DNA of 64,000 bases from Candidatus Uhrbacteria bacterium (GTDB lineage: Bacteria; Patescibacteriota; Patescibacteriia; UBA9934), in NCBI GenBank assembly GCA_963822405.1, contig CAWGHH010000001.1:87296-151295 (forward strand). Direction: 5' to 3'. The notes below the pieces were generated by a model. That model was not told the origin of the DNA. It worked only from the letters and a program-made list of their open reading frames with translations, and searched no databases. Each line of letters begins with the position of its first letter. The first letter of the stretch is position 1. Of the stretch, positions 3,854 to 64,000 are shown one piece after another. Position numbers and translations under genes: made by a program.

Positions 3854-4174
3854 TTAGTAGGCGAACCAAGGGAATGTAAAGTGGAAAATATTTGTGAGCA
3901 CTAGAGCAATGACCATGGAGATTCCGAAGCCGAGAGTCATGGCGTCACCGGATTGCATTTTACCGAACTTCGTGCCGAGATACATGGTTAGGATTGTGAT
4001 GGGCAGGAGAATGAACATTGGTCCCAGGAACGAGCTGCCACCGCGCGAACCGTGTCTAAGAGCAAATTCCCAGGGTGTAAGTATCGGTATCAGGAGAAAC
4101 GAAATAATGAGAGCCGCTAGCGCAACTTTTCCTGCAGCGGAGAACGTGAATTCTGGCGCTCCGTATCTACTCAT
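3854..4174 (-). CDS. Small integral membrane protein
   Basis: Three hydrophobic segments. Confidence 0.4.
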   Translation of the reverse strand: MSRYGAPEFTFSAAGKVALAALIISFLLIPILTPWEFALRHGSRGGSSFLGPMFILLPITILTMYLGTKFGKMQSGDAMTLGFGISMVIALVLTNIFHFTFPWFAY

Positions 4175-4176
4175 AG

Positions 4177-4587
4177 TTACCCCTCGACCAAAATCCGCAC
4201 AATGTTTGCAATGTCCATGTTTGCTAGGTTCTTTGGAATGGTTTCGCCGATGTGTTTGAGAACATCCGTGTGCATGCCTTCGGCGAAATGCGATTTGTTT
4301 ACTTCGGGGACGCAGGCGATAATTGTTTCGTAGCCTTCATGGCCAACCATCTCAAGCAGGCGAGTAGAGAGAGCGTGATAAAGTTCCTTCAAGCGATGAA
4401 TTTTCATCTTGTCGAGATCAACGTACGTTTCTTCGACGCGATCTGTCTCGGCGGTTTCCGGAGACTCAATAGTTTCGATTTCCTCAACCTCGCGATTTTC
4501 TGCCTTGAAGAGGCGAGCGCGTTCGTTGTTTGTAACTACGATCAAGGTCTTCTTCTCAAAAGGCGTATAGTGATCAGAGATTTGCAT
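4177..4587 (-). CDS. Host-attachment-protein-family-like protein (tentative)
   Basis: N-terminus KTLIVVTNNERARLF resembles the conserved start of the bacterial host-attachment family. Recalled, not searched. Confidence 0.3.
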   Translation of the reverse strand: MQISDHYTPFEKKTLIVVTNNERARLFKAENREVEEIETIESPETAETDRVEETYVDLDKMKIHRLKELYHALSTRLLEMVGHEGYETIIACVPEVNKSHFAEGMHTDVLKHIGETIPKNLANMDIANIVRILVEG

Positions 4588-4656
4588 ATTGCTTAGATAT
4601 TAGCACGAAGGGCATAGCAACGCCATGCCAGCGCATCTGAGGTATACTTTCCGTAT

Positions 4657-5349
4657 ATGGGAGGAAGATTGGGGGAAATACTTTCGGGCAGTGTCCGCGA
4701 GGTCGTTTTCGGCCTTGAGGATAGTTTTGTTTCGACTATGGGAGCCGTTTCGGGTATCGCTGTAGGGAGCGGGGACTCGCACGCGGTGGTTTTAGCGGGT
4801 TTAGTTGTGATTAGCGTCGAGGCCATTTCAATGGCGGCGAGCAGTTTTCTGTCGTCAAAAGCAGCTAAAGAGGTTTATGACGAGCGTTTCCGACAAGATG
4901 AATCGAGAATTTTGGCCGAGTTAGTTAGTGACCGTGAATCATTGCGCGACTTCCTGGCTCGCAAAGGATTTTCGAAGGTCGAAATGACTATTGCCATGAA
5001 AGCAATTGGTCGTGAACGTCGGTTGTGGCTCGACGAGGTTCATCGTTCGGAATTTAGGTTGTCGCCGGCAGCTTCTGGATCGCCCTTGTTATCGGGGATT
5101 GTGATGGGCGTGTGTTACAGCTTCGGCGGTATCGCTGTGATGTTGCCGTACATGTTTTTGCCGATTATCTTTGCGATGCCCATTACAATTTTGCTAACTG
5201 TGGTGGCACTATTCCTCCTTGGTTTTTGGAAGGCGAGTGTGGCCAACGTGAAACCGGTCAGAAGCGGTATTGAAATGGTCGCCGTCTCTCTTATCTCTGC
5301 TTTACTCGGAATATTTATTGGTCATTTGGTTTCGACGTATAATGGGTAA
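4657..5349 (+). CDS. VIT1/CCC1-family Fe/Mn transporter
   Basis: N-terminal cytosolic segment plus C-terminal TM helices with the typical VIT layout (GLEDSFVSTMGAVSGIAVG). Confidence 0.65.
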   Translation: MGGRLGEILSGSVREVVFGLEDSFVSTMGAVSGIAVGSGDSHAVVLAGLVVISVEAISMAASSFLSSKAAKEVYDERFRQDESRILAELVSDRESLRDFLARKGFSKVEMTIAMKAIGRERRLWLDEVHRSEFRLSPAASGSPLLSGIVMGVCYSFGGIAVMLPYMFLPIIFAMPITILLTVVALFLLGFWKASVANVKPVRSGIEMVAVSLISALLGIFIGHLVSTYNG

Positions 5350-24778: not shown

Positions 24779-25174
24779 ATGAACAAGCTAAAGAAACTTC
24801 TCATTGGTGCGGCGTTGGTAGTAGTGCCATTCTCAACTGCAGTCATGAACGTTAGCGCTCAGACTAGCAAGATTGGCGATAGCTTGGGACAAGTCGGGAA
24901 TGCGGCTCAATTGGGTGGTGGCGGTGAAGACCAGTTGGTTAATACGGTTGGTAGCTTGATTACTACATTCCTTGGAATTTTAGGTATTGTTTTCTTGGTT
25001 CTTGTTCTCTACGCCGGATTCACTTGGATGACAGCTATGGGTGAAGAGAAGAAAATTGCATCTGCTAAGAATATTCTCATCTCTGCTGTTGTTGGTCTTG
25101 TGGTTATCATGTCGGCTTATGCGATTAGTAGTTTCGTGATCGCTCAATTGCAACATGCCACAACAGGAGTCTAG
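24779..25174 (+). CDS. T4SS-pilin-like protein (paralog 7)
   Basis: Core FLGILGIVFLVLVLYAGFTWMTAMGEEKKIASAK. Confidence 0.55.
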   Translation: MNKLKKLLIGAALVVVPFSTAVMNVSAQTSKIGDSLGQVGNAAQLGGGGEDQLVNTVGSLITTFLGILGIVFLVLVLYAGFTWMTAMGEEKKIASAKNILISAVVGLVVIMSAYAISSFVIAQLQHATTGV

Positions 25175-25182
25175 TTATAAAT

Positions 25183-25232
25183 AAAACCCCCGTCTTCTCG
25201 TCGGTTAGCCGATGGGGAGGCGGGTTTTTTGT
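25183..25232 (+). terminator. Imperfect G/C hairpin plus T6, ending the pilin-like array
   Basis: Read in sequence. Confidence 0.4.
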
Positions 25233-25246
25233 TTGCGAGTAATGCA

Positions 25247-25277
25247 AAACCCCACACCTTCATCAGGTGTGGGGCGA
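25247..25277 (-). terminator. 10-bp stem CCCCACACCT/AGGTGTGGGG, with a T-run on the - strand
   Basis: Read in sequence downstream of the - strand gene 25360-25966. Confidence 0.5.
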
Positions 25278-25359
25278 ATGACCTCGATTCCCCTTTTAGG
25301 GGCTCGCCCGTAGGGCGGTCTACGCCCGAGGGGACAAAGGGGTCGAGCGCGGGACGGTG

Positions 25360-25966
25360 TCAGTTCCGGGTGCACGACGAGTTGAGCGGTTGATCGCTGT
25401 AGACGATCATTTTGACCTTGGTGACTTCGTCCGGCTGGAGGTCAGAGGGTTCACGGGTGATCACCTTGCAGGTGAACACGCGGGCGGCCTTTGCCGGTGC
25501 GAATCCGTTGCCAGCGTCTGCGTCGTTCATGACGCGCACGGGGCGGTATTGCCCGGGCGCGACCTGAACCGTCATCGGGATGCCGTCTGTCCAGGACTTG
25601 TTCGGATCTACCTCGTAGCCAATGGCGCCGAGGGCGTCACTGCTGGGAGCGATCCCGAACACGCTCGCTTGGGAGGGGAGGCAGTACCTCCAGCCGTCGA
25701 CGGTGAATTCCCCGACGCCGACCATATTCGGGCCATCAAAGGCCGTAACCGTCATGGTCGAGAGCCCCGTGTTCAGCCAGAGACAAGTTCGCGATTCGTT
25801 CTTGATGACGGTGTAGTGCGGCTTGAGCCGACAATTTTCGTTCGGCTCTTGGAGCATGAACGGTCCAGCCGGCAACTGCATGTTGGCGCAGCTGATTGAT
25901 TCGGGGCCGGTGATCATGTCCTGTGCGGAAGCGAGGGACAGGGCGAAGAGCATGTAAGTGAACATG
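25360..25966 (-). CDS. Secreted hypothetical protein (G+C-rich island)
   Basis: Signal peptide MFTYMLFALSLASAQD; RBS GGAG; six Cys. Confidence 0.45.
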
Positions 25967-26098
25967 GCGCACTCCAAAGTTGGGAAGGGATCTGACGGAT
26001 CTGAGGGCGACCAACGGAATATTCCGTGAGTCGCTCTGTAGATCCGGTCTCCATATACGCATTTTCATGCATTTATGGAGACCGTTCAAGTCGTGTGC

Positions 26099-26940
26099 CT
26101 AGTATCCCCAGAACCGATCCCACCAGGACTTGTTGACCTGGGCGTCGAGTTCCTTCTGCTTGGCGGTGAGCTGCGTCTGCAGGTCAGTTGCGTCCGCCAT
26201 GCTGGCGTCCAGCAGCTTCTGCGTGGTGTCGTCGACGATGGGCGCGGCGACCGGCTTGGTGACGCGGTCAACGTGCCGAACCGGCTCGTCGAGCACAGGG
26301 TACTGACCGCCAGTCTGACCGAACGCCATGAGCTGACCCATGCCGTTGCCGTAGCCGAAGGCCTGGCTCATCGGCATTTGGTTGCCGTAGATCGCCGTGG
26401 CCGTGGCCGCGGGCCAGTGGCTGCCGTGGTCGTGCCGTCCGGATTCGTGGTGATGACCACGGCCGGCGTAACGACACCGCTGTTGTTCGCGGTGATGGCC
26501 TCGAACGTGCCGGGCTGGAGAGCCGCGATCTGGGCAGGGGTCAACGTATGCAGGTCGACCGTCTTGGCCTTCGCGAGATCGTACGCGCCCTGGATGGCCA
26601 GCTTTCGCGTGTCGGCGTCGGTCTGATCGATCGCGGTGCGTCCGACGGATTCGAACCAGAGGGACTCCTCATGCGCACGCGCGATGTCGAGCGCGCCCTG
26701 GACTTCGATTCGGCTGGTGGCCGCGTCGTAGCCCTGGATTTGGATCCGTCCGCCCTCCAGGCACTGAGCCTGCATGAGGGCGAATTTCTCGGGGGAGACG
26801 TGGCCTTGGTAGGCACCGTTGGCGCAGTCGATCGTGCCCTCTCCCCGGCCGACAACGGAACCGTTCGGTTCGTTGTGGCGGTCCTGCGCGTTCGCAATGG
26901 AGAGCATCGAGAAGATAACGAACAACATTGTCCACCTCAT
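26099..26940 (-). pseudogene. Secreted hypothetical protein, apparently split by a frameshift near 26395-26420
   Basis: Signal peptide MRWTMLFVIFSMLSIANAQD. A protein-like translation continues in another frame (…ATATAIYGNQMPMSQAFGYGNGMG…) past a GCCGTGGCC repeat. Confidence 0.35.
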
Positions 26941-27011
26941 GAAAGCGTTCGCCGGAACAGCTGTGGAAACTATTCCATCAGCCCATCCGGACCGATAAGA
27001 ATAGCAGAAAA

Positions 27012-27026
27012 TTGACGTTTTGTCAA
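27012..27026 (+). promoter_or_regulatory. Palindrome TTGAC-G-TTTT-GTCAA containing a -35-like TTGACG in the AT-rich region upstream of the 771-aa gene
   Basis: Read in sequence. I could not place the -10 with confidence. Confidence 0.25.
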
Positions 27027-27189
27027 CCGTTATTCAATATATTATGGCTAAGGTTTGAGAGATCTATGATGATGGAGACCATTGACTTTTTCCCCTTTTT
27101 CTGCTAATCTCACCTGTCCTTAGGCGGCAAGAACCGTAAGGGACATTCTTTAACAATTCGCATCAATTTCTCACTAAACGAGGTGTCCC

Positions 27190-29505
27190 ATGATGGATTG
27201 GACGCGTCTGTTGACGCAACAGTTGCAAGAGTTTATGAAGGAAGAGGGGATCACTCCCCTTAACATTCATGAAAAACTGACCGGGGAAGTGCTCAAACGC
27301 TTCCTTGAAAAGTTTGCCGGTACGGCTGATCCCGTGCAGTTGCGCAAGCAGCTGGCGGATGCCCCTGGCGCCGCCGGTTTCTTCATTTCCCTCATGCTGG
27401 CTATGCCGGTTGAGGGACGGCTAGCCACCCTTCTCGTCCTTTCGGAAGTGATGAAGGCAGCGGGCTTGCCAATTCCCACCAGTGCCAGAACTGCAGTCAT
27501 TGCAGCTTTTGGTGCAATGGGCGAGGCCGGAGTAACTGACGCAGATGTGCGCCGGTACCGTTCTCGCGTGCTCTCGTATTTCAACAGCTCGGCCATTCCG
27601 GCTGAGTCAGTTCCTGTTCCCATCGAACCCATCACCGGGGCCTCGGCAGTGCCGACTCCAAAGGATACGAACATGAGTCCCCTGATCAATCCGTTGTGTC
27701 TCACTTGGCCGGTCACTCCGGTCGCAGTTGAGCAGCCGGGATTCCATGTGTTCGCCGTGCCGGGTGTCATTCATCAGGACTTCGGGCCGTCCGCGTCCGC
27801 GCAGACTCCCGAAACCGTCGCCGCGAGCACGACCCAGAATCCGTTGCCTGGTTCCGCTGAACCGCCTCCCTCGGGTGGCGATCCGGTGGTCCCGCCGAGC
27901 AATCCGCCGGAGCCCGTGACCGTGAACAACGTTCCGGTCACGCCTCCGTCCGGTGGTGGTGGGGCAATCCCTCCGTCCACCGGTCTCACTCCGCGCCGCG
28001 AAGGCCCGGATGGTAACCGGTGGCGGTACTTGGACTTCATCATCAATGACGTCCTGCCGTTGCGCGAAAACGAGACTTTGACTTTGCCCGATGGCCAGCT
28101 CAAATATCGATTTGGGTTGGCCTGGGTACAGGAGCACTTGGGAGAAGATTCCGCATTCGGCAAGCAGGCGCGTGAAGCGTTCTCGCTGTTGCCGGAGATG
28201 ACGGAATTGGAGCGTGCGACACTTGAGCCTCACCTTGTGGTGCTCAGGCGGGTGCACGCCCCGAAGAGCACGGTCACGAAGGCGGAGCGCAATCTCGCCA
28301 CCGTGCCTGTGAACGACGCGATCCACCTGTCGCACGCCTGGGACGTGCGGATCCGGGTCATTGCCCAGGCCAACGCCTGGTTCTGGCGCCGGTGGTTCTT
28401 GTTCGGCCTCGCGGATCTCGCGGACGATAAAAACGATGACGAGTTCCGTGAGTGGCGCAATGGAATCTTGAAGATCTTCGGATTCGGTTCCGCCACCACC
28501 ACGGCCGTTATCGCGATCGGCGCGCTCATGCTCGGTCGCAAGGCGTACAACTGGCTCACCAAAAAACCGGAGGCAATCACGAGTACAACGTCAGGTACAG
28601 GAGGCGGCGGCGGAAATTCCGGCGGCACTTCTCCGGGATCGACTCCGGCGAAAGAACCCACTCCGTTTGTGACCGTACTCGGATGGTTTCTGATCGTGGT
28701 GTGTCTGATCATGGTCATCCCATGGATTGCGAGCTGGTTCGTCGAGGGCATGTCCATTCGTGCTCTGATGGTGACTGCTCCGATCGTGACGATCTGGTGT
28801 GCCAAGTATCTCCCCTTCATCCATGATCCATGGGTGTGGCCGAGGGAGAGCGTCGTGCTAAACGACGACACCAACGCGCTCGTGAAAGGGCGAGTTGACG
28901 TGAAGTCGAGGATCTTCGAGGCGATCAACGAACGCAATTTGAAGTTGTTGCTCGTAACGCCAGGCATCTGGCGGCGGCTGCTTCTGAAGATTGCTCTCGG
29001 GGCCGTGTTGATTGGCGGTATCATCATGAACTTCGTCTTCATCTTCACGGGTGACTCACACATCGCGCAAGCCTCGATAACGGTCGGGATACTCGCGGCG
29101 GGATTTTTCCTTGATCTCGCCCAGCTCTTCAATGCATATTTCACGTTCTCAGAGATCGCGGATATGCTCAAGCCGGTGTTCAGGCCGGCGCTCAAGCTGA
29201 TCGTTGGCGTGATCGTGGTGGGTTTGGGGAGTGAGCTTCTCTTCCCGGGCATCGGTCAAGTCGGTTTGCTCGCTAAGGTTCAATCAACAACCAGAGCCTG
29301 GGCTCCGGTTTCCAAGGAAATGGTGAAGACGGGGTTCCTCACTGCTCCAGTTGGTGACCTGTGGTTCCGATCGGAACCCGTAACCAAGCCTTTGATCGCA
29401 TCCGTTTCCGGTACCTGCGCGTCGCGGGATCGGATGGAGGCGCGGATGGCTGGTTACTGCAGTAACGCCCAGACGAAGAACGACGGGCGTTGTAAGTGCG
29501 AGTGA
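27190..29505 (+). CDS. Large multi-pass membrane protein with Pro/Gly-rich linkers; function unknown
   Basis: 771-aa ORF in a G+C-rich segment with several TM helices in the C-terminal half. Confidence 0.5.
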   Translation: MMDWTRLLTQQLQEFMKEEGITPLNIHEKLTGEVLKRFLEKFAGTADPVQLRKQLADAPGAAGFFISLMLAMPVEGRLATLLVLSEVMKAAGLPIPTSARTAVIAAFGAMGEAGVTDADVRRYRSRVLSYFNSSAIPAESVPVPIEPITGASAVPTPKDTNMSPLINPLCLTWPVTPVAVEQPGFHVFAVPGVIHQDFGPSASAQTPETVAASTTQNPLPGSAEPPPSGGDPVVPPSNPPEPVTVNNVPVTPPSGGGGAIPPSTGLTPRREGPDGNRWRYLDFIINDVLPLRENETLTLPDGQLKYRFGLAWVQEHLGEDSAFGKQAREAFSLLPEMTELERATLEPHLVVLRRVHAPKSTVTKAERNLATVPVNDAIHLSHAWDVRIRVIAQANAWFWRRWFLFGLADLADDKNDDEFREWRNGILKIFGFGSATTTAVIAIGALMLGRKAYNWLTKKPEAITSTTSGTGGGGGNSGGTSPGSTPAKEPTPFVTVLGWFLIVVCLIMVIPWIASWFVEGMSIRALMVTAPIVTIWCAKYLPFIHDPWVWPRESVVLNDDTNALVKGRVDVKSRIFEAINERNLKLLLVTPGIWRRLLLKIALGAVLIGGIIMNFVFIFTGDSHIAQASITVGILAAGFFLDLAQLFNAYFTFSEIADMLKPVFRPALKLIVGVIVVGLGSELLFPGIGQVGLLAKVQSTTRAWAPVSKEMVKTGFLTAPVGDLWFRSEPVTKPLIASVSGTCASRDRMEARMAGYCSNAQTKNDGRCKCE

Positions 29506-48779: not shown

Positions 48780-51845
<3,066 letters not shown>

Positions 51846-51907
51846 CTAAGCATCAGTAAGTGCAGATCTCTATACAAAATAATACGAAGTTAAACAATGA
51901 AAGATCG

Positions 51908-52027
51908 CAGTGTCTTGGTGGCACTTTCTGCAGGGTCACACCCGTTCCCATCCCGAACACGGCCGTTAAGCCTGCATGAGCCGATGGTAGTTAAGTGTAG
52001 CGAGAGTAGGTGGCCGCCAGGACACTG
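51908..52027 (+). rRNA. rrf: 5S ribosomal RNA
   Basis: Helix I CAGTGTCTTGGTGGC/GCCGCCAGGACACTG; internal CCGAACACGGCCGTTAAG and CGAGAGTAGG. Confidence 0.8.
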
Positions 52028-52046
52028 CGATTTTTCAAACAAAGAA

Positions 52047-52072
52047 CCCGATTCGAAAGAGTCGGTTTTTTT
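52047..52072 (+). terminator. Hairpin CCGATTC-GAAA-GAGTCGG plus T7 (module copy 1), followed by a TATACT -10-like element
   Basis: Read in sequence; repeated at 53222, 54679 and 55435 with T5, G11 and G8 runs. Confidence 0.6.
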
Positions 52073-52089
52073 GTTATACTGCGTACACT

Positions 52090-52608
52090 ATGTATTCACG
52101 AGCACAGGTGGCGACTCGATTGTTTGGGATGATGGGAACATTTATTGCGCTCGGCGTAGCATTGTCGTTTGGCGTCCCGTATGTTCCTGCGGGTACTTTG
52201 GCGATACTCGGCGAATCGGCGTTTGGGTTGTTGATTGTTTTATTGATTCTAGGGGAACTCCATAATCCACCAAAGCCTTACCAAGACGAGCTTCTGACGA
52301 GGCGTGATGAGGTATGGATTAATAAATGTGAAGCTGTCTCCTTGTTGTTGCTCATTGTGTCCGTTCTTTTGTTCCCCGTAATGACACAGTTTGCGATTCC
52401 CTATGCGGTTAGCGTTGGGGTGTATGGGGGATGTGTACTAGTACTTTTAGGGTCGTCGAGCTTCATTATTGGTCGAATAACTCTAGGGAAACACGGATTA
52501 CGACGCCCATCATTTACCGGAAATTCCGCAAAAGTGGTTTCGATTTTTTTGTGCGTATGCGGTTCTGGCTGCATCTCATTCTTTTTGCATTTGTTGATCG
52601 GAGCATAG
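52090..52608 (+). CDS. Integral membrane protein, function unknown
   Basis: About 5 TM helices; follows the module promoter. Confidence 0.4.
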   Translation: MYSRAQVATRLFGMMGTFIALGVALSFGVPYVPAGTLAILGESAFGLLIVLLILGELHNPPKPYQDELLTRRDEVWINKCEAVSLLLLIVSVLLFPVMTQFAIPYAVSVGVYGGCVLVLLGSSSFIIGRITLGKHGLRRPSFTGNSAKVVSIFLCVCGSGCISFFLHLLIGA

Positions 52609-52686
52609 ATAGATATTCCGAGTCGAAAGGCTCGGCTTTTTTGTTGGTTGACTTCTGGGATGCGAGTCGATATTATCTTGATAAGT

Positions 52687-52839
52687 ATGGCTACGAAGAA
52701 TAAGCAATACAGTTCGGTTGAAGCAAAGAAGATTGTCGATGAGTATATCGATCAATCGGCTGTTCGATTGGCTCAAAGATTGAAGAAGGGATATGCCGTG
52801 CAGAAGAAGCAAGTGGCCAAGGCGCATGCCTATGCCTAG
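52687..52839 (+). CDS. Putative antitoxin
   Basis: Small basic ORF overlapping the toxin-like ORF. Confidence 0.3.
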   Translation: MATKNKQYSSVEAKKIVDEYIDQSAVRLAQRLKKGYAVQKKQVAKAHAYA

Positions 52840-53179
52840 GGTGTACTTCAGTGAATCGGCTATTTCATCCATTAAGGGCTTCATCCGTGCGTACGAGGAG
52901 GCCTTTTTTGAATTGTATCGAGATGGCGGTTTGGCGGATGAGCGGTTGATTGTCGAAAACTACCGATTGTCTGCAAAACAGATAAGCACCCAGATATTTA
53001 TTGAGATCGAAATGCATCTGGGTAGTAAAAAGGTATTTGGGCGAAAAGAGCATACGCAGTGGCAGGAACTTACGTTTTACGTCGGGAGTCGCTTGATAAC
53101 TGTGTATTACACTGACAACGAAGATAATTCGAGACTAGTCGAGGTTATCGGCATTGAGAGAAAACCGATTATATTTTAG
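52832..53179 (+). CDS. ParE/RelE-fold toxin-like protein
   Basis: ...SRLITVYYTDNEDNSRLVEVIGIERKP C-terminal pattern. Confidence 0.35.
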   Translation: MPRVYFSESAISSIKGFIRAYEEAFFELYRDGGLADERLIVENYRLSAKQISTQIFIEIEMHLGSKKVFGRKEHTQWQELTFYVGSRLITVYYTDNEDNSRLVEVIGIERKPIIF

Positions 53180-53221
53180 CGACCGTTGGTATTAGGACAC
53201 GGTGATTTTTCAAACAAAGAA

Positions 53222-53245
53222 CCCGATTCGTAAGAGTCGGTTTTT
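53222..53245 (+). terminator. Module copy 2: hairpin CCGATTCGTAAGAGTCGG plus T5
   Basis: Read in sequence. Confidence 0.5.
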
Positions 53246-53262
53246 GATATACTGCGTTTACT

Positions 53263-54648
53263 ATGGAACACGGAAAATCTTTGGGGGATGTATTGAGGCC
53301 TGAATGGGTTCGAAATCGTAAAGAGTCGACCGCAGAAGAGCATCCATCGAACGACAGAAAGGAACAGGAAATCAGTAGAGAAGTGGGGGAAAGGTATGTC
53401 CTCATCGTTGATGAAGTTGTTCCGGGCTCGGCGATGGAGCTAGCCGGAGTACAGGCGGGTGATCAAATTTTCGCGATAGGTGAGAAGGCTATTAGAAATA
53501 AGTTTCTTGCCTCGTCTGTTCAGGAGTGGGCGGGGGAACCAAAAGTCTTTAATATTTTTAGGGACGAAGAGTACGTTGATGTCACAGTTCAGCCTGTCTG
53601 GAATGCACAAACAAATCTATGGTCGCTTGGTGCACGTTTCACCGCTGCAATTGTCACAGTGGAGTCAGAGAAAGAAATTGAACAGACGGAAGTTCAGCGT
53701 GTAGCAATTGAAGCATACGGTGCCCGCGGGTATGCGGATCTTGGTCCAAGTGAAGAGGTACAAGGTGAGTCCGGAAAATATAGAAAAGAGATACGCGCTT
53801 TTGTACTTTTTGGACTAGATAAGGAAGGAAACCCTACCGAACTCGATCTTCTCAAACGTTTTAACCCTACGAATGTTAAGGTGTATGAGCAGAAAAGCAT
53901 TGAAAGCGCGGGTTTATGTACGAGAACGGACATCCAGGTCAAGAGCGTTACATCGAAGAATGCTCCTCACATCATCTTGCATGAATTACGCCATGCGAAT
54001 CAATACGAAACGGGAATGTTTGGAGACATTGAAAGTCGCTATCGGAGTACGTCTGACGAGAGCTATCAACAAAACGACACCTGGAAGCTTACTAACGGAA
54101 ATTTCCTTACGTTTTTAAAAATTCTCGAGCACTTTTTCTCCGATGAACAGATAGATGACATTTTGAAGAATTATCAAAAAAAGAGCCGGCGGGTTATGAA
54201 GATTAGTAACATGTTGAGTGATCCGAACCATCGGGGATCTTCAGATGATAAGGTATTAGAAGAAGAACTTGTGAAGGCCAAGGCGGAGTTTGATCGTGTC
54301 TCCGCTCCTGACGCAGAAATGATACCCGGTGTGACGATACGGGACGTTTTCCGGCTTCCTACGCTCCTCATGGAACGAGACGCGGAATACGGAGCGCTTG
54401 TGGCTATACGAGCGATCAAACGAGAAATCGGCACTGATCTTTTTGAGGACGATGCAACAAAGAAAATGCTAAAATTCTTTGATAAAGAGGGGAAGTCGGG
54501 CTCCAAAGAAGGAGTTATAACCATGCAAAAATTACGAGGCAAAATTCAAACACTCGCGAACATCGAGCATTACATGCAAATGATAGGCGTCCCGGAAAAT
54601 TGTTTGAGGGACATTCGTTCCGCGGCAAAACAAACGATCAAGGCGTAG
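53263..54648 (+). CDS. PDZ-domain protein with an HExxH motif (putative metallopeptidase-like); novel architecture
   Basis: PDZ-like YVLIVDEVVPGSAMELAGVQAGDQIFAIGEKAI; HELRH at ILHELRHANQYE. Confidence 0.4.
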   Translation: MEHGKSLGDVLRPEWVRNRKESTAEEHPSNDRKEQEISREVGERYVLIVDEVVPGSAMELAGVQAGDQIFAIGEKAIRNKFLASSVQEWAGEPKVFNIFRDEEYVDVTVQPVWNAQTNLWSLGARFTAAIVTVESEKEIEQTEVQRVAIEAYGARGYADLGPSEEVQGESGKYRKEIRAFVLFGLDKEGNPTELDLLKRFNPTNVKVYEQKSIESAGLCTRTDIQVKSVTSKNAPHIILHELRHANQYETGMFGDIESRYRSTSDESYQQNDTWKLTNGNFLTFLKILEHFFSDEQIDDILKNYQKKSRRVMKISNMLSDPNHRGSSDDKVLEEELVKAKAEFDRVSAPDAEMIPGVTIRDVFRLPTLLMERDAEYGALVAIRAIKREIGTDLFEDDATKKMLKFFDKEGKSGSKEGVITMQKLRGKIQTLANIEHYMQMIGVPENCLRDIRSAAKQTIKA

Positions 54649-54678
54649 CTCGGTGTTTTGTTTTGCACAAGCATTCCT

Positions 54679-54703
54679 CGACTCGAAGAGTCGGGGGGGG
54701 GGG
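54679..54703 (+). promoter_or_regulatory. Module copy 3: hairpin CGACTC-GAA-GAGTCG followed by a G11 homopolymer and an AT-rich promoter-like sequence
   Basis: G-run at 54693-54703, read in sequence. Confidence 0.45.
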
Positions 54704-54736
54704 TAATATAGGAGAAAAGTTACTAACATATTTAAT

Positions 54737-55375
54737 ATGGGCGTTGAGAAAGAAGATAAAGATCCCAATGCTAGGCATTGGATAGCATCGAGAAAGCCTG
54801 AGCCGACAATTGAAAGTACGCAAGAATATGCTAAAGAGAAACCTGTAATTGAAAGCAGGCTGGGTAGTCTCTATAAACCAACAGCTGCTGAGGAAACTGA
54901 GCGTAAATTACATCCTGAATTACATGAGGAGGGTGGTTTAGACGCAGTTAAAAAGAGGATCGCGAATTTGAAGAAAGGTCACGGTAAATTGATAATTCCT
55001 CCCGGGTACATTACTGACAGAGAGATGGAATCAAATAGAGTTTTAGGCGAGCGTTATCAAGAATCATCAAATGAAATTAAAAGATTAGAAGGAATAATAC
55101 GGGATTCCGAATTGAACGATGAGAATGAAGCAAATAGTTTGCGTGTGGCTGAAGTAGAGAGAATCAAGGAGTCCGCGGATCTTTCAGCAAGAAATAAAAG
55201 GGATAGCGCAATGTTAGACGAACGAAAACAAAAAGCTGAGAAAGAGCATTGGGCCGAATATCAAAGACGACTTTACGAGGCGCAGATAAAACTTCAAACG
55301 GCGTGGTTTTGGCAACGCGCTGGTCTTCAGAAGACAATTGATTTCTATGAGGCAGAATTTAAGAACAGGAAATAA
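54737..55375 (+). CDS. Highly charged coiled-coil protein, paralog A (conserved AWFWQR C-terminal motif)
   Basis: 212-aa ORF; a paralog of 55493-56218. Confidence 0.45.
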   Translation: MGVEKEDKDPNARHWIASRKPEPTIESTQEYAKEKPVIESRLGSLYKPTAAEETERKLHPELHEEGGLDAVKKRIANLKKGHGKLIIPPGYITDREMESNRVLGERYQESSNEIKRLEGIIRDSELNDENEANSLRVAEVERIKESADLSARNKRDSAMLDERKQKAEKEHWAEYQRRLYEAQIKLQTAWFWQRAGLQKTIDFYEAEFKNRK

Positions 55376-55434
55376 TCTTTACATTTTGATTAAGAAGTAG
55401 TCAAAAAATGATTGTATTGATTTTTTAAGCAAAG

Positions 55435-55459
55435 CCCGATTCGAAAGAGTCGGGGGGGG
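55435..55459 (+). promoter_or_regulatory. Module copy 4: hairpin CCGATTCGAAAGAGTCGG followed by a G8 homopolymer
   Basis: Read in sequence. Confidence 0.45.
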
Positions 55460-55492
55460 TAAAATTAGAACAAAGTCACGAACATAATTAAT

Positions 55493-56218
55493 ATGGCCGT
55501 TGAGAAAGAAGGAGGAGACCCGAAGGCTAAAGATTGGAAGGCGCCGGAAAAAGCGCCGAAAAAATACGATGAGATTAAACGCATTGAAGACTCTATAGCG
55601 TCCATGAGGAAGGGTTACGGCGGTAAGAAGGAAGACGATCCAAAAATATCTGAATTTGAAAAGATGCTCGTTAGGGCAAAAGAAAGAAAGGCGCAAGATG
55701 ATGCTTGGCTTGAGCAGTCCCCCGAACTTCGGGCTGTGGGTGGTTTAAAAGCAGCTAACGAAAAACTTACGAAGTTAAGGGAAGAGATGAATAAAATGTC
55801 AAAAATACTTAGTATATCTCCTCATCCTGATTTTATTGAAGCGGGCGTGTACGAGCGTAGTGATGGTCAGAAAAGAGCATCGGAACGATACGATATAATG
55901 AATACTGAAGTACGAAGGTTGGAAGGGATAATTAAGGGTCAAGAATCGTATACGTTTGATGAAGAGAAAAAGAAGAAAACGTTAGAGGTGCAACAGGAGG
56001 AAGATAGAGGGCGTGAACTTAAAAAGGAATGGAAGGAGCTGCAAAAAAGAAGGGATGATGCTAAGGATAAACTTGATCAGGCTTGGTTTTGGCAACGCCG
56101 CGCAATACAAGAAGAGATCGAGTCTATAGATACAGAATTAGAAAATTTGAGAAAACGAATAGAGAAGGAGGATAAAATAAGGAAAGAAAGAGTAGACAAA
56201 GCAATTTACGGTAAGTAG
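55493..56218 (+). CDS. Highly charged coiled-coil protein, paralog B
   Basis: Shares the N-terminus M(G/A)VEKE..DP.A..W, a central ...RRLEGII..., and the C-terminal AWFWQR. Confidence 0.45.
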   Translation: MAVEKEGGDPKAKDWKAPEKAPKKYDEIKRIEDSIASMRKGYGGKKEDDPKISEFEKMLVRAKERKAQDDAWLEQSPELRAVGGLKAANEKLTKLREEMNKMSKILSISPHPDFIEAGVYERSDGQKRASERYDIMNTEVRRLEGIIKGQESYTFDEEKKKKTLEVQQEEDRGRELKKEWKELQKRRDDAKDKLDQAWFWQRRAIQEEIESIDTELENLRKRIEKEDKIRKERVDKAIYGK

Positions 56219-56396
56219 TTCTAAATAATCCAACAATTACCCGGCCCCATAAAGGTTGGGTATTTGTTATACTCGACGAAACATAAATTCTATGGACAAT
56301 TTGCCAGGTGAAGGTCGGGGTTTTTGTTTTCGAGCAAAATAAGTCCCCCGCACCAAGATGGTCGGGGGATTTGGCGTGCGGCGAGGTGGACGCGAG

Positions 56397-56874
56397 TCAT
56401 GAGGGGCTGTACGTGAGGAAGGCGCGGACCAGGGAATCAATCCAGACGAGAGCGCGTTTGTTGTCTGGAGAGTTGAGATTGGGACGGTAGTGAATGTCAT
56501 TTTTGTCCCAGCCTTGAAGCTTCGAGAGAGCGCTGACGATGCGGACTTCGGTGTCATTTTCCGCGTCATCCCTGAGGAGCCTGTCTGTACCAGTGAGCAA
56601 TGCCATCGAGGTTGAGTTCGTAGCAGATATTGAAGAGGCGATCCGTGTTGCTATCTTCGTTCCGGGAGAGGCAGACCTCTATCTCTGGAAGGCCTGTCGA
56701 TGTATCAACGCTATCCCCCCATGAGAGACGCAGGTTATTCTGGCTCGTACTCCAGATCATTCCGCCAGCGCGGGATTCACAGAGGATTATTTTTCCGATA
56801 CAGGCTTTGTCGATTGGAATCTTGACTAGGTTTCTTATCCTTCGAACGTGCGTTACGACTTCCAGCTTATTCAT
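56397..56874 (-). pseudogene. Hypothetical protein (paralog of 56978-57436), apparently frameshifted near 56600
   Basis: Two overlapping ORFs. The C-terminal ALVWIDSLVRAFLTYSP matches AFEWIDAMLRSFLNYEP of the neighbour. Confidence 0.35.
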
Positions 56875-56977
56875 TGGAATATCCTCCCGGCTCAATTTAC
56901 CCTAAATAAACAAAGAGCGCATCCGGAAGGCATGGCCAGCCGGATGGCTGTGGCTCTTTGCCCCGCGGATGCGCGAG

Positions 56978-57436
56978 TTAGGCGGTGACTGGCTCGTAGT
57001 TCAGGAACGAGCGCAGCATGGCGTCAATCCATTCGAACGCCTGGGCGTCGGAAGTTGCGATGGTCGGGCCGGGTTCCCAGGCTTTCAGCTCGGGGAGACG
57101 CGCGAGAAGATCCTTCAGATCTTCATCTTGTTCGTTCTCCGGTTCGGGCCCTTGTTGCGACCAGACCATGCCATGCGACCCGTCTTCGGAGTAGCTGACG
57201 GTCACGATCCAGAATTGCTGATTCCATTCGGCGACTTCGATCATCAGCGCCTGGATGGAATCTTTCTCTGCCGAGAGAAACCAACGAATGCACAGGCCGT
57301 TCTTGGAGATCTCCCAACCCTTGCCGTGCCCGTCTTCGAACGGGGTAATCAACGGCACCTTCTTTCCCGCGTTAATTACGCGGTCTCGCAGTTGATCAGT
57401 CACGTCCAGAATCTGTTCGTTAAACGGTTGAACCAT
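56978..57436 (-). CDS. Hypothetical protein (paralog family)
   Basis: GGGAGGG RBS 7 nt upstream of the ATG at 57436. Confidence 0.4.
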   Translation of the reverse strand: MVQPFNEQILDVTDQLRDRVINAGKKVPLITPFEDGHGKGWEISKNGLCIRWFLSAEKDSIQALMIEVAEWNQQFWIVTVSYSEDGSHGMVWSQQGPEPENEQDEDLKDLLARLPELKAWEPGPTIATSDAQAFEWIDAMLRSFLNYEPVTA

Positions 57437-57596
57437 GTTTGTTACCCTCCCAAGCATGCCGGAACCCCCGGCGGATTGCTGTCTTTCGACCAAAGATATT
57501 GCCATAAATGAGTAGGAAAGTCCAGTTTGGGCTGTTATGGACTTTAAAACTTTACGTCTTTACAACTTTATAACTTCCCCTCATACTGTCACCAAT

Positions 57597-58373
57597 ATGA
57601 ATGACACCAAAGTGGTGATTCTGGCGGCGGGGAAGGGAAAGCGCATGGGCGCTAATGTTCCGAAACCCCTTGTGAAGATAGCGGGAAAGGCCATGATTTC
57701 GCATTTACTGGAAAGGGTGCGGGCGTCTGGGCTCGACCAAAAGCCAGTTGTCATAGTTTCTGTTGACGGAAAAGCTGATTTTGAAGCCGAACTTGGCGAT
57801 TCTGTAGATTTTGCGGTACAAGTTGAACAAAATGGGACGGGCGATGCTTTGCGGTATGCCGAGGAAGCTTGCAAGGGCGCATCGAGAATCATTGTTCTAT
57901 ACGGCGATCATCCATTTATTAGTGCGGACGTTTTGAAGCAACTCGCCGATCTATCTTCGAAGAATCATGGAGATATCGCTATGTTGACGGCGACCGTGCC
58001 AAACTTTGAAGGAGATTTTGGGATGTTTGTGAAGTGGGGGAAAATCATTCGTGAAAATTCGGCGAAGGGGCATGGCGGCGCCATGCCCGTACAAGCGTTG
58101 CGCGAGGTTAAGGATTGCTCGCCGGAAGAGCTGGCGATCACAGAAGTAAATCCAGGGATTTATGCTTTTCCGGTTCCTTGGGTATTCGACAGATTGAAAG
58201 ATGTGAAGAACGAGAATGCCAGCGGTGAATATTATTTGACGGACTTGATTGGGCTTGCTATGCAAGAAGGAAGAAAGATTGTGACTGCGTCAGTAGATCC
58301 TTTGCAGGTTGTTGGGATCAATACGCCTGATGAGCTCATCAAAGCTGAAGAGCTGTTAACTAAATATATATGA
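57597..58373 (+). CDS. Sugar-phosphate nucleotidyltransferase resembling the GlmU N-terminal uridylyltransferase domain
   Basis: VVILAAGKGKRMGANVPKPLVKIAGKAMISHLLERV nucleotidyltransferase signature; no LbH acetyltransferase domain. Confidence 0.55.
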   Translation: MNDTKVVILAAGKGKRMGANVPKPLVKIAGKAMISHLLERVRASGLDQKPVVIVSVDGKADFEAELGDSVDFAVQVEQNGTGDALRYAEEACKGASRIIVLYGDHPFISADVLKQLADLSSKNHGDIAMLTATVPNFEGDFGMFVKWGKIIRENSAKGHGGAMPVQALREVKDCSPEELAITEVNPGIYAFPVPWVFDRLKDVKNENASGEYYLTDLIGLAMQEGRKIVTASVDPLQVVGINTPDELIKAEELLTKYI

Positions 58374-59781: not shown

Positions 59782-59874
59782 ACCACCGAGGCCCTTCGGG
59801 GCAGACCAACCACCTCCCCCTACCCCCTCCTTAGAAAGGAGGGGAGGCGAACCATCCTGACCATTAAATACCGT

Positions 59875-61577: not shown

Positions 61578-61618
61578 TTCCCGGCAAAGCCGGGCTCGGC
61601 TACGCCGGAAACTTTTTT
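61578..61618 (+). terminator. Hairpin CCCGGCAAAGCCGGG and a second small hairpin, followed by T6
   Basis: Read in sequence. Confidence 0.4.
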
Positions 61619-61911: not shown

Positions 61912-62030
61912 GTCCTCATCTGATCACTCAAGGGAGAGAGTCCTTAAGTGATCGGATGAGGGGACGACGGCTGTGCAAGCGCATCGTCCACGAGTCACTT
62001 TGCTGTTCTGGCACAGAAAGTGAGAAATAT
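61912..62030. repeat. Structured repeat R1 (three consecutive stem-loops; lacks the 45-nt prefix)
   Basis: About 90% identical to 63890-63999. Confidence 0.7.
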
Positions 62031-62036
62031 GCCGGA

Positions 62037-62333
62037 TCAGTGGCGCTTGATCCAGCCACCGTTATTCGTGCGGTGTCCCTCTGCGTGGATCTTTTTGATT
62101 TCATCCCACAAAGTGGCGCGAGCCGTCTTGGGCGTCATGTCAGCCGGAGCGGCCAGCAGGACGAAGTCGTAGACGGCCTTCCTGTGACAATCGCCACAGT
62201 AGCCGTCATCCCAGCAACAGCACGGGCCTCGCCCGTGGTCCAGGCTCCGGGACTCGGCCCGGCCAGGGTGAAGCCCCGGGCGAGCAACTGCTCGCGAACA
62301 AGGTTCGAGCGCGTTTTGATGATGGGCATGTGC
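62037..62333 (-). CDS. Hypothetical Cys/Gly-rich protein, possibly frameshifted (G+C-rich region)
   Basis: ATG with GGAGGG lies inside the repeat prefix. Two overlapping - strand frames are both protein-like. Confidence 0.3.
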   Translation of the reverse strand, partial: AHAHHQNALEPCSRAVARPGLHPGRAESRSLDHGRGPCCCWDDGYCGDCHRKAVYDFVLLAAPADMTPKTARATLWDEIKKIHAEGHRTNNGGWIKRH

Positions 62334-62335
62334 CC

Positions 62336-62440
62336 TCCAATCGAGCAACGCGATCGCGCATGAGCTGCGCAGTGATCGGTCCTCATCTGATCACTCAAGG
62401 GAGAGAGTCCTTAAGTGATCGGATAAGGAGAGAGCTCAAC
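62336..62440. repeat. Structured repeat R2 (45-nt prefix containing CGCGATCGCG, then the first stem-loop, then diverged)
   Basis: Prefix identical to 63847-63890. Confidence 0.7.
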
Positions 62441-62543
62441 CGCGCGTGTATGGCGGGAGCTCTCTACTGAGTGCTAAGATTTCTGTTTCTACTTGGAACT
62501 TCACCGCGCGAATCTGAGAGCGCGGATAATGAACAACGAATCG

Positions 62544-63089
62544 CTACTTGCGGTAGCCACCAGCGAACCCGAGGGCCGGGTCGCCGTACAGATCGGTGAG
62601 TCCCTGGCTCGCCGCCCAACCGCCGAGGAATGCCTCGATCGGGGCGCGGCCGGGCGCCGTCCCATCTCCGGCTCCACCAAGAATGATCTTCCGGCGCGGG
62701 TCCTCGGGTGTTTCCGGGATTTCGGCCAGGTAGGCCACGCCAATGCGGTGGGCCGCCTCGGACAGTTCCGGGATGCTGTTACCCGGGACAACGGCGGGTA
62801 CGATGATGCACCGCCCGGCTCCGGTTGGGGTGGTGTGGTATCCGTCCTCACACGTGGCGCACCCGGCCGCCACGTGGTTTAGGCGCGCGCCAGTCCGCAG
62901 GTCGGCGACCTGGATGGGCGCCACCTCTCCATGGATGAATCCATGACTTTCGTCGTGGATTCCCTCCATGAACCAGTCAGGCCGCTCGCCCGACCGGTAA
63001 CCGTCGTTGCCCTCTCGCAGGGTGATCCGCGGAGCCGCCGCGATCGCGCAGACCGCGGTTATTATAAGGTGTTCCGTTTCTTCGGACAT
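62544..63089 (-). CDS. Hypothetical protein
   Basis: Strong RBS GGAGGTAA before the ATG at 63089. Confidence 0.4.
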   Translation of the reverse strand: MSEETEHLIITAVCAIAAAPRITLREGNDGYRSGERPDWFMEGIHDESHGFIHGEVAPIQVADLRTGARLNHVAAGCATCEDGYHTTPTGAGRCIIVPAVVPGNSIPELSEAAHRIGVAYLAEIPETPEDPRRKIILGGAGDGTAPGRAPIEAFLGGWAASQGLTDLYGDPALGFAGGYRK

Positions 63090-63299
63090 TTTACCTCCAA
63101 TGCGCCAAAGACGCGGGTTGTCGAAGCAGTTTCCGCTTCGACATAATCTGTCATTCATGATGAAAGATTGTGTCGAAGGGCGAGGAAGAGAGCGTGCGTT
63201 TGCTCCATCCTCCTCGCCATTACGAATGCAGTGTCAAAGAACAATCCACCATTTCTTTTTATGGAAGAAACGGTGACAAAGAAACCGACGCAGGCTATG

Positions 63300-63838
63300 T
63301 TAACGGAAAAGCTTTTCGAGTTCCTCCGTTTGATAGCGGGTGAGGGGCCCGATGATGGACATGGATACATCCATTCCCTCCACGTCCATTCCCTCGACCA
63401 CGTCCCAGAGAGTGATGAGCCCCCAGCAGACGGCCCCCTGCCCGTAGGTGAAGGGGGTGCCGGGTACGGCGATTTCTTCCATCATTCCTATTTTGCAGAG
63501 TGTGGGGAATACCACCACTCCATACAACGAGCTCAGGGAGAACCAGTCTCCCGTCCATCCTTCCTGGGCCTCGTCCGTGGCAACTAGGAGAGCCTCACGG
63601 CTCCCGTCCGGCCGGGTGTAGACCCAGAGGGCCACCCCCGCTCCGCAACCCCGGGGGCGGGTTTCATCCGTGATCCCGAGGTGGGCCAGATGGCCCGCTT
63701 TCCGGTTTCCGAGTAGTGCAGGATTTCCTCCCGCATTCCCAGGAGTAGGTGTGGAGCCACCTCTCGAATTTTTTCTTCGAGGTCATAGACCCAGAAGAGC
63801 TTCCCATCCAAATTTTTATTCAAGTAGACATGGGCCAT
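63300..63838 (-). pseudogene. Hypothetical protein, apparently frameshifted near 63590-63635
   Basis: The ATG at 63838 with GGAGG lies at the edge of the repeat prefix; two overlapping ORFs. Confidence 0.3.
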
Positions 63839-63846
63839 GGCGGCCT

Positions 63847-64000
63847 CCAATCGAGCAACGCGATCGCGCATGAGCTGCGCAGTGATCGGTCCTCATCTGA
63901 TCACTCCAACGAGAGAGTGTTGAAGTGATCGGATGAAGAGGACGACGGCTGTGCAAGCGCATCGTCCACGAGTCACTTTGCTTTTCAGGCGAAAGAAAGT
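63847..64000. repeat. Structured repeat R3 (prefix plus three stem-loops), running to the window end
   Basis: Matches R2 (prefix) and R1 (stem-loops). Confidence 0.7.

Follow-up and report, generated by a model that had tools for sequence, protein, structure and literature searches.

A probable gene-flux islet of modular transcription units between the 5S ribosomal RNA gene and glmU of a Candidatus Uhrbacteria bacterium

What fills the space behind the 5S ribosomal RNA (rRNA) gene of a Candidatus Uhrbacteria bacterium, and what kind of element, if any, do its genes compose? The stretch analysed here, hereafter the window, comprises 64,000 nucleotides (nt) of contig CAWGHH010000001.1 (GenBank assembly GCA_963822405.1, positions 87,296 to 151,295 of the forward strand), and the block in question is an islet of 5.4 kb within it, between the 5S rRNA gene and glmU. 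A preliminary description, made by reading the letters, had recognised there a toxin–antitoxin (TA) pair, a protein joining a PDZ domain to an HExxH motif and two pairs of fast-evolving paralogs, and had likened the ensemble to a defence or contingency islet. We propose that the block is probably a variable islet of modular transcription units, a hot spot of gene flux between the 23S–5S rRNA genes and the glmU–trmB operon, and not a dedicated defence system.

Bacteria of the Candidate Phyla Radiation (CPR; Patescibacteria) presumably live attached to the cells of a host, and almost nothing is known about variation of expression or exchange of genes among them. The islet offers a concrete hypothesis on both counts, in which conserved terminator/promoter modules would act as joints for single-gene swapping and poly-G tracts occupy promoter-like positions. 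Current views are not overturned by it; what it adds is three well-delimited, experimentally approachable unknowns. Exact copies of the window proteins were matched only on a single NCBI/ENA contig and, for run ERR12037365, on its Logan contigs. Metagenome-assembled genomes (MAGs) named Candidatus Uhrbacteria and Candidatus Magasanikbacteria supply the relatives of the 461-amino-acid (aa) PDZ/HExxH protein as well as those of the flanking genes.

Turnover of the interval between 5S rRNA and glmU

Comparison with three relatives, L004, L008 and L027, locates the variation within the interval. In L004 (JGI 3300013232), the end of the 23S gene together with 5S (96.9% nt identity), the small gene pair (81.8%) and glmU–trmB (86.7%) all align with the window, whereas the open reading frames (ORFs) between these anchors are non-homologous: the places of the 461-, 212-, 241-, 158- and 175-aa genes are taken by + strand genes of 313, 365, 344 and 333 aa, − strand genes of 290, 152 (AAA_33) and 142 aa and a + strand gene of 84 aa, and the slot of the 172-aa ORF holds an unrelated 169-aa gene rich in lysine and glutamate (K/E-rich). 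L008 starts in the 3′ end of 5S and runs through the small pair, its second gene frameshifted, to glmU with no cargo at all. In L027, a Candidatus Uhrbacteria MAG, glmU–trmB is preceded by about 900 bp with small unrelated ORFs and, before these, by the C-terminal part of a PDZ/HExxH homologue (46% identity); the order of glmU (66% aa identity), trmB (75%) and the next two genes is shared with the window. The earlier view of an accessory, variable block is thereby borne out, as L004, with flanks about 87% identical, holds other genes between the small pair and glmU, and L008 none.

From these comparisons the small pair emerges as a positional resident, as does the PDZ/HExxH gene in some lineages, and the rest turns over. 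Base composition agrees with this split. The G+C content at third codon positions (GC3) is 0.52–0.53 for the small pair and 0.45 for the 461-aa gene, against 0.45–0.58 for neighbouring genes; it is 0.35 and 0.39 for the 212- and 241-aa genes and 0.57–0.66 and 0.68 for the 158- and 175-aa genes, so that both paralog pairs deviate in composition from their neighbours. All ORFs of the preliminary description are present; the anchors and genes are listed below, all coordinates here and throughout being window positions unless a relative is named.

51914–52022, + strand: 5S rRNA gene, left anchor (Rfam RF00001, 79.3 bits).
52090–52608, + strand: 172-aa ORF with five transmembrane (TM)-like segments, no family match.
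52687–52839, + strand: 51-aa basic partner, pI 9.9, with the motif Y(S/T)..E......Y(I/L)D.S..RL..RL (alignment of 11 loci).
52832–53179, + strand: 115-aa toxin-like candidate with invariant YEEAFFELY, GRK and C-terminal RKPIIF (family alignment).
53263–54648, + strand: 461-aa PDZ plus zincin-like protein, predicted cytoplasmic (Pfam, family profile, models).
54737–55375, + strand: 212-aa K/E-rich paralog, GC3 0.35.
55493–56218, + strand: 241-aa K/E-rich paralog, GC3 0.39.
56397–56874, − strand: 158-aa paralog, split in the window by an extra G at 56579 and intact in Logan contig L005.
56978–57505, − strand: 175-aa acidic paralog (152 aa from the gene caller's start at 57436), GC3 0.68, with the C-terminal motif WID..R.FL.Y.P.
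57537–58373, + strand: GlmU-like nucleotidyltransferase, N-terminal domain only, right anchor.

Read in this way, the 51/115-aa bicistron would be a resident, native by composition and synteny, conserved, autonomous and TA-like, and the PDZ/zincin gene a second resident, native on the same two grounds. The 212/241-aa genes, coiled-coil-like and placed behind type B modules (below), and the two acidic − strand genes of 158 and 175 aa would be recent cargo of foreign composition.

One cargo protein of L004, of 365 aa (4060–5157), gives weak matches to HD domains (HD_4, E 0.0017; motif LLHDYLEEGDG) and may be a SpoT-like phosphohydrolase.

Terminator and promoter modules at the junctions

Two types of intergenic module recur in the islet. 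Type A consists of a terminator hairpin, an extended −10-like element TG(T/A)TATACT and an ATG 9 nt further on. Type B reads (terminator) TTTTGCACAAG....TTCC-TCGACTCGAAGAGTC-G(n)-TAATAT-27 nt-ATG. The copies in the window are as follows.

52019–52092, + strand: type A, copy 1; 5S 3′ tail, hairpin CCGATTCGAAAGAGTCGG with a T-run, extended −10-like TGTTATACT, 9 nt, ATG of the 172-aa ORF (fold z = −4.6).
53194–53265, + strand: type A, copy 2; hairpin at 53223–53240, ATATACT, ATG of the 461-aa gene.
54649–54736, + strand: type B; remnant of a broken terminator, TTTTGCACAAG, hairpin 2 (54676–54703) with G11 (54693–54703) as its 3′ arm, TAATAT (54704–54709) and a 27-nt leader.
55436–55492, + strand: variant type B; hairpin CCGATTCGAAAGAGTCGG, G8 (55452–55459), TAAAAT and leader.
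56238–56342, + strand: type A junction (hairpin 56238–56262, TTATACT) followed by a 16-codon stub MDNLPGEGRGFCFRAK* (56292–56342).

Both types precede non-homologous genes in two genomes. Homologous type B modules occur in L004 at 1793–1872 and 3012–3100, and the type can be aligned across four genes of the two genomes, namely the 212-aa gene (G11), the 169-aa (G8) and 313-aa (G10) genes of L004 and, in variant form, the 241-aa gene (G8), with the tract itself as the main difference in length. The hairpin motif CCGAYTCGWAAGAGTCGG, expected 0.11 times in the 64 kb, has 6 matches there; the block accounts for five of these, at four sites. The six modules that were folded give z = −2.2 to −5.2. 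No Rfam family corresponds to the hairpin or poly-G modules, even at E ≤ 1.

Traces of rearrangement lie in the modules themselves. The upstream terminator of the junction behind the 461-aa gene is reduced to its 3′ half, which places a breakpoint inside the terminator hairpin. At the third type A junction, window positions 56239–56317 align with L004 5175–5253 (83.5%, blastn), where a 344-aa gene follows a type A module with a different hairpin; by this alignment the stub at 56292 is what remains of the 5′ end of that gene, whose ORF is complete in L004, a relic of deletion or replacement. We suggest that the islet is built of short autonomous transcription units, each bracketed by a re-used type A or type B module, and that recombination between or within these modules would have swapped, duplicated and deleted the ORFs lying between them.

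The −10-like hexamers of the 51-, 172- and 461-aa genes (52671–52690, 52078–52092 and 53251–53265) lie 9–10 nt before the respective ATG, and no Shine-Dalgarno sequence is visible; the short distance and the missing Shine-Dalgarno suggest leaderless or very short-leader messenger RNAs.

The first two type A copies also constitute a 74-bp direct repeat (52019–52092 and 53194–53265, 88–94% identity) that starts in the 3′ tail of 5S and brackets a 1.17-kb segment with the 172-, 51- and 115-aa genes. A repeat formed from the last bases of 5S and its 3′ flank could be att-like, and the islet would then be a decayed integrative element or prophage remnant with foreign cargo, a reading that also draws on the deviant GC3 of the cargo, its varying presence and absence and the position of the small pair just downstream of a transfer RNA (tRNA) gene in two other loci. 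We consider this very unlikely. The repeat is itself a module of terminator and promoter, of the kind seen again before other genes, and is more simply explained as a duplicated regulatory module; the small pair that it brackets is syntenic in three genomes, with a GC3 like that of native genes; no integrase, transposase, phage structural or replication gene is present; and neither the four protein families nor the junction motif has any similarity to phage, plasmid or IMG/VR sequences.

The comparison with islands at tRNA, transfer-messenger RNA or rRNA genes is nonetheless instructive. As in those, the islet lies immediately downstream of an RNA gene whose 3′ end belongs to a direct repeat, its content varies among close relatives with collinear flanks, and part of the cargo deviates in composition; unlike those, it has no integrase or mobility gene, its repeats are terminator/promoter modules that recur inside it, and it consists of single-gene units instead of a contiguous foreign block. 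Integron cassette arrays share with it promoter-proximal single-gene units, recurring hairpin-forming separators and a content that varies between relatives. They differ in that the islet has no intI, that its hairpins, with GC stems of 7–13 bp and 3–4-nt (GAAA) loops followed by T- or G-runs, are not attC sites, and that each unit has its own promoter-like element.

Several observations weigh against a modular islet of this kind. The comparison of the 5S–glmU interval covers three relatives, two of them short contigs; the block and those neighbouring ORFs that were scanned contain no recombinase, integrase or transposase that could drive an exchange; and ORFs with no Pfam match are common elsewhere in the window, so that unknown genes by themselves do not mark an island. 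The block might accordingly be nothing special, a run of ordinary lineage-specific CPR genes, about half of the genes in such a genome being unannotated, with repeats arising from two tandem duplications and from similar terminators. The G-run count of the window, which is at chance (below), fits this as well, and tandem duplication of the 212/241-aa gene with its upstream region accounts for the repeat at the variant type B module (D1). What such a reading leaves aside is that type A and type B modules stand before non-homologous genes in two genomes, and that the stub at 56292 and the three states of occupancy show active turnover confined to the interval between collinear flanks of about 87% identity. 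We regard it as quite unlikely.

A PDZ protein with a putative zinc peptidase domain

The 461-aa protein had been described as a PDZ domain combined with HELRH and no signal peptide, and each part holds: the PDZ is found by profile and by fold, HELRH occupies residues 240–244, and no TM- or signal-like segment is present. The PDZ spans approximately residues 44–121, with PGSAMELAGVQAGD at 53422–53463, and is followed by HIILHELRHA (53968–53997) and ERDAE (54373–54387). Pfam PDZ is reached at E 8.5e-5 (23.3 bits against a cut-off of 23.2), PDZ_6 is matched by 43 of 55 family members, and the family profile finds the PDZ domains of DegQ and RseP at E of about 1e-12. In Foldseek, the full-length model hits the PDZ of RseP with probability 1.0, E 2e-5 and a target-normalized template modelling (TM) score of 0.76–0.81.

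A word-indexed search gave 8 relatives and an exhaustive profile search of 1.84 billion representatives about 55 full-length ones, a CPR family of at least 50 clusters. The close set of 8 sequences shows no variation in HxxLHELRHA and LPTLxxERDAEYGAL, and across 55 sequences H240, E241, H244, Q247, Y260, P366, E371, R372, D373 and A374 are each at least 90% conserved. AlphaFold2 models the whole protein with a predicted local distance difference test score (pLDDT) of 87 and a predicted TM score (pTM) of 0.78, and residues 123–461 with pLDDT 90 and pTM 0.87. The model runs from the PDZ through a β-sheet subdomain to the HExxH helix (234–250) and a helical subdomain, and places ERDAE (371–375) on a helix of about 30 residues (359–389), some 130 residues past HExxH.

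In gluzincins the third zinc ligand comes from an ExxA[D/E]-like motif on a downstream helix. The model of the 461-aa protein appears to have the general zincin layout, and its E-x-x-A-[D/E] recalls the gluzincin third-ligand motif. H240 and H244 of HExxH together with the Glu of the ERDAE helix would bind zinc, and the PDZ would select or gate substrates by their C-terminal tails. The most likely function, which we hold to be probable, is that of a stand-alone cytoplasmic zinc peptidase whose PDZ binds the C-terminal tails of substrates or regulators.

Two results count against a peptidase. DUF6782, annotated as 'putative metallopeptidase', is hit by 21 of the 55 members at E ≤ 0.01 (best E 9e-7) over about 65 residues around HExxH (profile positions 41–116 of 241), but the window protein scores 13.5 bits and the relatives shown individually 19.9–21.2, all below the gathering threshold of 27 bits; the similarity is remote and below membership. 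In Foldseek, the full model yields PDZ matches only, and the C-terminal model no PDB neighbour (best E 0.17), none in BFVD and no metalloprotease. With no metalloprotease in Foldseek and DUF6782 below its cut-off, peptidase activity is deduced from the motifs only. Snf7, DUF7272 and SrfE gave weak matches to the 461-aa protein and were not used as evidence.

Fusion of one PDZ of the RseP/HtrA type to a putative protease is shared with RseP/S2P (M50), HtrA/DegP/DegQ (S1C), Tsp/Prc (S41) and M61, and the order of β-sheet subdomain, HExxH helix and downstream helix with a conserved Glu with the zincin type of layout. In contrast to those PDZ-bearing proteases, the 461-aa protein carries its PDZ at the N terminus, lacks both signal peptide and TM segment and is predicted to be cytoplasmic, its putative third ligand lies about 130 residues from HExxH, and its putative catalytic domain reaches the threshold of no Pfam peptidase family and finds no PDB neighbour despite a pLDDT of 90. 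NCBI annotates the family only as 'PDZ domain-containing protein', and we regard it as a candidate new family of cytoplasmic metallopeptidases.

Its neighbours in other CPR include an ABC transporter, RmuC, DUF218, ClpB (in L025), a Ser/Thr kinase, MoxR/VWA and glmU, with no recurring partner, and the downstream neighbours of the homologues in L002 and L003 (236, 203, 302 and 225 aa) are unrelated to the 212/241-aa proteins. The preliminary description had allowed that housekeeping homologues in conserved synteny would speak against an islet. The result goes only partly that way: the PDZ/HExxH gene is syntenic with glmU in a Candidatus Uhrbacteria MAG, and it stands alone beside ordinary genes in other CPR. 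The family is also carried by three third-party-annotation MAGs titled 'uncultured Gammaproteobacteria bacterium' (L022, L023 and L025; CAZURG010000055.1, CAZIMD010000014.1 and CAYIHE010000022.1); as it otherwise occurs in Uhrbacteria and Magasanikbacteria MAGs, that label may be wrong.

The small 51/115-aa gene pair

The resident pair has its own punctuation, with terminators both up- and downstream.

52618–52676, + strand: terminator hairpin (52618–52635 with T-run) and sigma-70-like promoter TTGACT-17-TATTAT (52648–52676), 10 nt before ATG 52687; conserved in L004.

The promoter is a strong one of its type, and ATG 52687 fits better than the earlier start given by the gene caller. The small upstream partner of the preliminary description is indeed present as the 51-aa ORF, whose end overlaps the start of the 115-aa ORF by 8 nt. 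Its ParE/RelE-like label fared differently. Pfam, NCBIfam, PHROGs, PADLOC and PDB profiles gave no match to the 115-aa protein or to 10 of its homologues (E ≤ 1–10), hhalign against approximate sequences of RK2 ParE and Escherichia coli RelE gave a probability below 1%, which is a lead only, and a scan of genome contigs with the 115-aa family returned no match. For the 51-aa partner, a PDB profile search gave chance matches only.

Relatives of the 115-aa protein were found in 16 metagenomic loci, at 37–83% identity over the best segment; the L004 orthologue is 88% identical. In 14 of the 16, an overlapping partner of 50–66 aa lies directly 5′ of the full-length gene, the others being L021, where the partner is present but the 115-aa gene truncated, and L011, where no partner is visible. 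The pair adjoins 5S in three genomes and follows a tRNA gene closely in two loci; other contexts, assigned by reading sequences, comprise VapBC-like genes, membrane proteins, sugar nucleotidyltransferases and aminoacyl-tRNA-synthetase-like and ribosomal-protein-like ORFs, and neighbours differ among L006, L007, L009, L013, L014 and L015. Three copies of the 115-aa gene are damaged: in L021 (6148–6279) only its first 29 residues remain, fused to the following gene, in L008 (657–1000) it is frameshifted, and in L019 (443–931) it is split by an insertion of about 150 nt.

Architecture and distribution would fit a type II TA module, and we assign the pair to that class tentatively, at a little short of an even call. 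Type II systems of the RelE/ParE kind share with it a bicistronic layout of two small, overlapping genes, of which the first encodes the shorter, basic protein, an own promoter, unrelated contexts and occasional decayed copies; by eye, there is also an N-terminal A..(D/S)(L/I)..(F/I)(I/V)R.Y pattern and a β-rich C-terminal half like that of ParE. On the other side, the 115-aa protein has no profile similarity to RelE, ParE, HigB or YoeB models or to solved structures, the partner has no recognisable DNA-binding fold, and conservation of the 115-aa protein is unusually high (37–88% over the best segment). The bicistron is a candidate for a new TA-like family restricted to these bacteria.

The residents invite a further interpretation: only the paralog pairs would be accessory, and both the PDZ/zincin and the small pair would have housekeeping roles at the level of the clade, for instance in association with ribosomes or proteostasis. 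It would account for the pair's synteny beside 5S in three genomes, for its rate of evolution, about as slow as that of glmU (88% against 90% aa identity), for the tRNA, ribosomal-protein-like and tRNA-synthetase-like neighbours noted above and, with regard to the PDZ/zincin, for synteny with glmU in L027, proximity to ClpB in L025 and, as in the pair, native GC3. It does not sit well with an L004 that lacks the PDZ/zincin at the site, with damaged 115-aa genes in L008, L019 and L021, with contexts of the pair that are otherwise unrelated (VapBC, membrane proteins, sugar nucleotidyltransferases) or with a PDZ/zincin family as patchy as some 55 clusters among the 1.84 billion representatives. 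On balance we find it rather unlikely.

Orphan paralog pairs

Both pairs are paralogous, as had been proposed. The 212- and 241-aa proteins align by BLASTP at E 1e-16 and 28% identity, have MxVEKE..DP, RLEGII and AWFWQR in common and consist of K, R, E and D to 39% and 48%, respectively. A profile of the pair searched against 5.8 billion proteins found only the two themselves. L004 nevertheless contributes fragments of the pattern in its own 5S–glmU cargo: the 169-aa protein shares the N-terminal MxVE(K/R)E.KDP and P..R..GGL, and the 333-aa protein LD.AWFW(Q/H)R. These shared motifs indicate that the 212/241-aa proteins belong to a mosaic, clade-restricted and very fast-evolving family that occurs only in this interval.

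For the − strand pair, the 175-aa protein matches the 69-aa C-terminal piece of its neighbour at E 4e-7 and the repaired 158-aa ORF at E 1e-6. The neighbour had been called frameshifted, a verdict that we revise: the extra G at 56579 is missing from Logan contig L005 of the same run, ERR12037365, where the 158-aa ORF is intact. A second single-G difference lies at 61592 in an intergenic hairpin (window GCCGGGCTC, L005 GCCGGCTC), and the two differences together make a consensus indel error or a strain variant likelier than a pseudogene. Neither Pfam nor other profiles gave an informative match for the 158/175-aa pair, PDB profile searches gave chance matches only, and YbjN, at E 0.12 for the 175-aa protein, was too weak to be used as evidence. 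A 180-aa + strand ORF (56969–57511) lies fully antisense to the 175-aa gene; paralogy of the 175- and 158-aa proteins favours the − strand reading.

With the cargo described, a defence islet can be weighed, in which TA pair, PDZ/HExxH protease and paralogs would form one or more anti-phage systems, such as an abortive-infection protease with its sensors. A locus that varies between relatives, a TA-like bicistron, duplicated fast-evolving cargo and the insertion of a HigB-like Gp49 and helix-turn-helix (HTH) pair a few kb away in L004 are all in keeping with it. The PADLOC models, however, match none of the proteins, the best scores in PADLOC-DB 2.0 (PDC-S06, E 0.006; JetC, E 0.55) being coiled-coil noise on the 241-aa protein; Pfam shows no nuclease, NTPase, STAND, TIR or SIR2 domain in the proteins of the block; and the PDZ/HExxH gene is stand-alone elsewhere, with no cargo protein co-occurring with it in other loci. 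We judge a defence function of the block highly improbable and retain the reading of modular transcription units in a variable islet.

Poly-G tracts in promoter-like positions

Contingency, the other half of the preliminary proposal, remains a live hypothesis, plausible but unproven, with the poly-G tracts of the promoter-like modules as its argument. A homopolymeric tract in the spacer between −35 and −10 is the classical design of a phase-variable promoter, as in Neisseria porA and opc. In the window, the G11 and G8 tracts abut TAATAT and TAAAAT about 40 nt 5′ of the ATG, and a putative −35 TCGACT (4 of 6 positions of TTGACA) would leave a spacer of 17 nt with G8, 19 nt with G10 and 20 nt with G11. 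Tract length could thereby switch expression of the K/E-rich paralogs.

Intergenic G/C tracts of Campylobacter have been reviewed (PMC8355987), and a Gracilibacterium has been reported to possess a hypervariable repeat gene (PMC6851277). A literature query for Patescibacteria with "homopolymeric tract" yielded as its only co-occurrence a 2013 review that mentions each term once.

The islet modules resemble phase-variable promoters in having G8–G11 directly 5′ of a TAATAT-like hexamer with a putative spacer of 17–20 nt set by the tract, in tract lengths that differ among homologous copies, in their place before fast-evolving paralogs and in an independent assembly that breaks exactly at the G11 tract. 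In that assembly, Logan contig L001 ends in the full G11 and L005 starts with G11, the overlap being 11 nt only; such a break would fit a fork of the assembly graph between G11 and tracts of at least G12, and Illumina poly-G error could produce it equally well. The islet departs from such promoters in that its proteins have no signal peptide or surface features, that the tract is in part the 3′ arm of a hairpin, and that the host belongs to the CPR.

Three observations tell against slippage. G/C runs of at least 8 number 2 in the window against a shuffle mean of 1.4, which is not above chance. TCGACT is a weak −35 assignment, made for a group whose promoters are uncharacterised. As the 3′ arm of hairpin 2, the tract pairs its first four to six Gs with CCTTCC/TTCC, so that it may be structural and not a slippage switch. 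With the run count at chance, the argument is carried by position and homology instead: the only G/C runs of at least 7 in the window are the two in type B modules, and the tracts belong to homologous modules of two genomes, with lengths of 8, 8, 10 and 11, each abutting a −10-like hexamer. In its full form the hypothesis makes the 5S–glmU interval a true contingency locus, in which a K/E-rich family (the 212- and 241-aa proteins and those of 169 and 333 aa in L004) would be shuffled between modules and switched ON and OFF by poly-G slippage, and in which the PDZ/HExxH protein would in addition found a new metallopeptidase family with a fold that has no solved representative. We think this conjunction unlikely; were it true, it would be the first case of homopolymer phase variation combined with cassette-like gene exchange in a CPR episymbiont.

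Flanking genes and other observations in the window

To the left of the islet lies a bacterial 23S rRNA gene (48792–51823, +; Rfam), whose match of 3032 nt to a model of 2925 positions may hold insertions. A gene like RlmH occupies the − strand just upstream of 23S–5S, and Rfam detects no 16S gene in the window, thus none in the 48 kb 5′ of 23S–5S. A 25-nt inverted repeat (51898–51922 and 52013–52037) flanks the 5S gene and looks like a processing stem. To the right, the GlmU-like gene is followed by that of a TrmB-like regulator.

Beyond these, L004 (12291–12937) carries a bona fide HigB-like (Pfam Gp49) and HTH_3 pair between genes for a 215-aa membrane protein and a NUDIX protein. The matching site of the window (59782–59874) measures 93 nt only, a second indel of TA type less than 3 kb from the islet.

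Two further segments, 25000–29500 and 62000–64000, stand out by a G+C content of 0.56–0.62, the remainder being at about 0.48. Pfam has no match for their ORFs, one of which encodes 771 aa (27190–29505), and the segments may be other foreign or fast-evolving regions.

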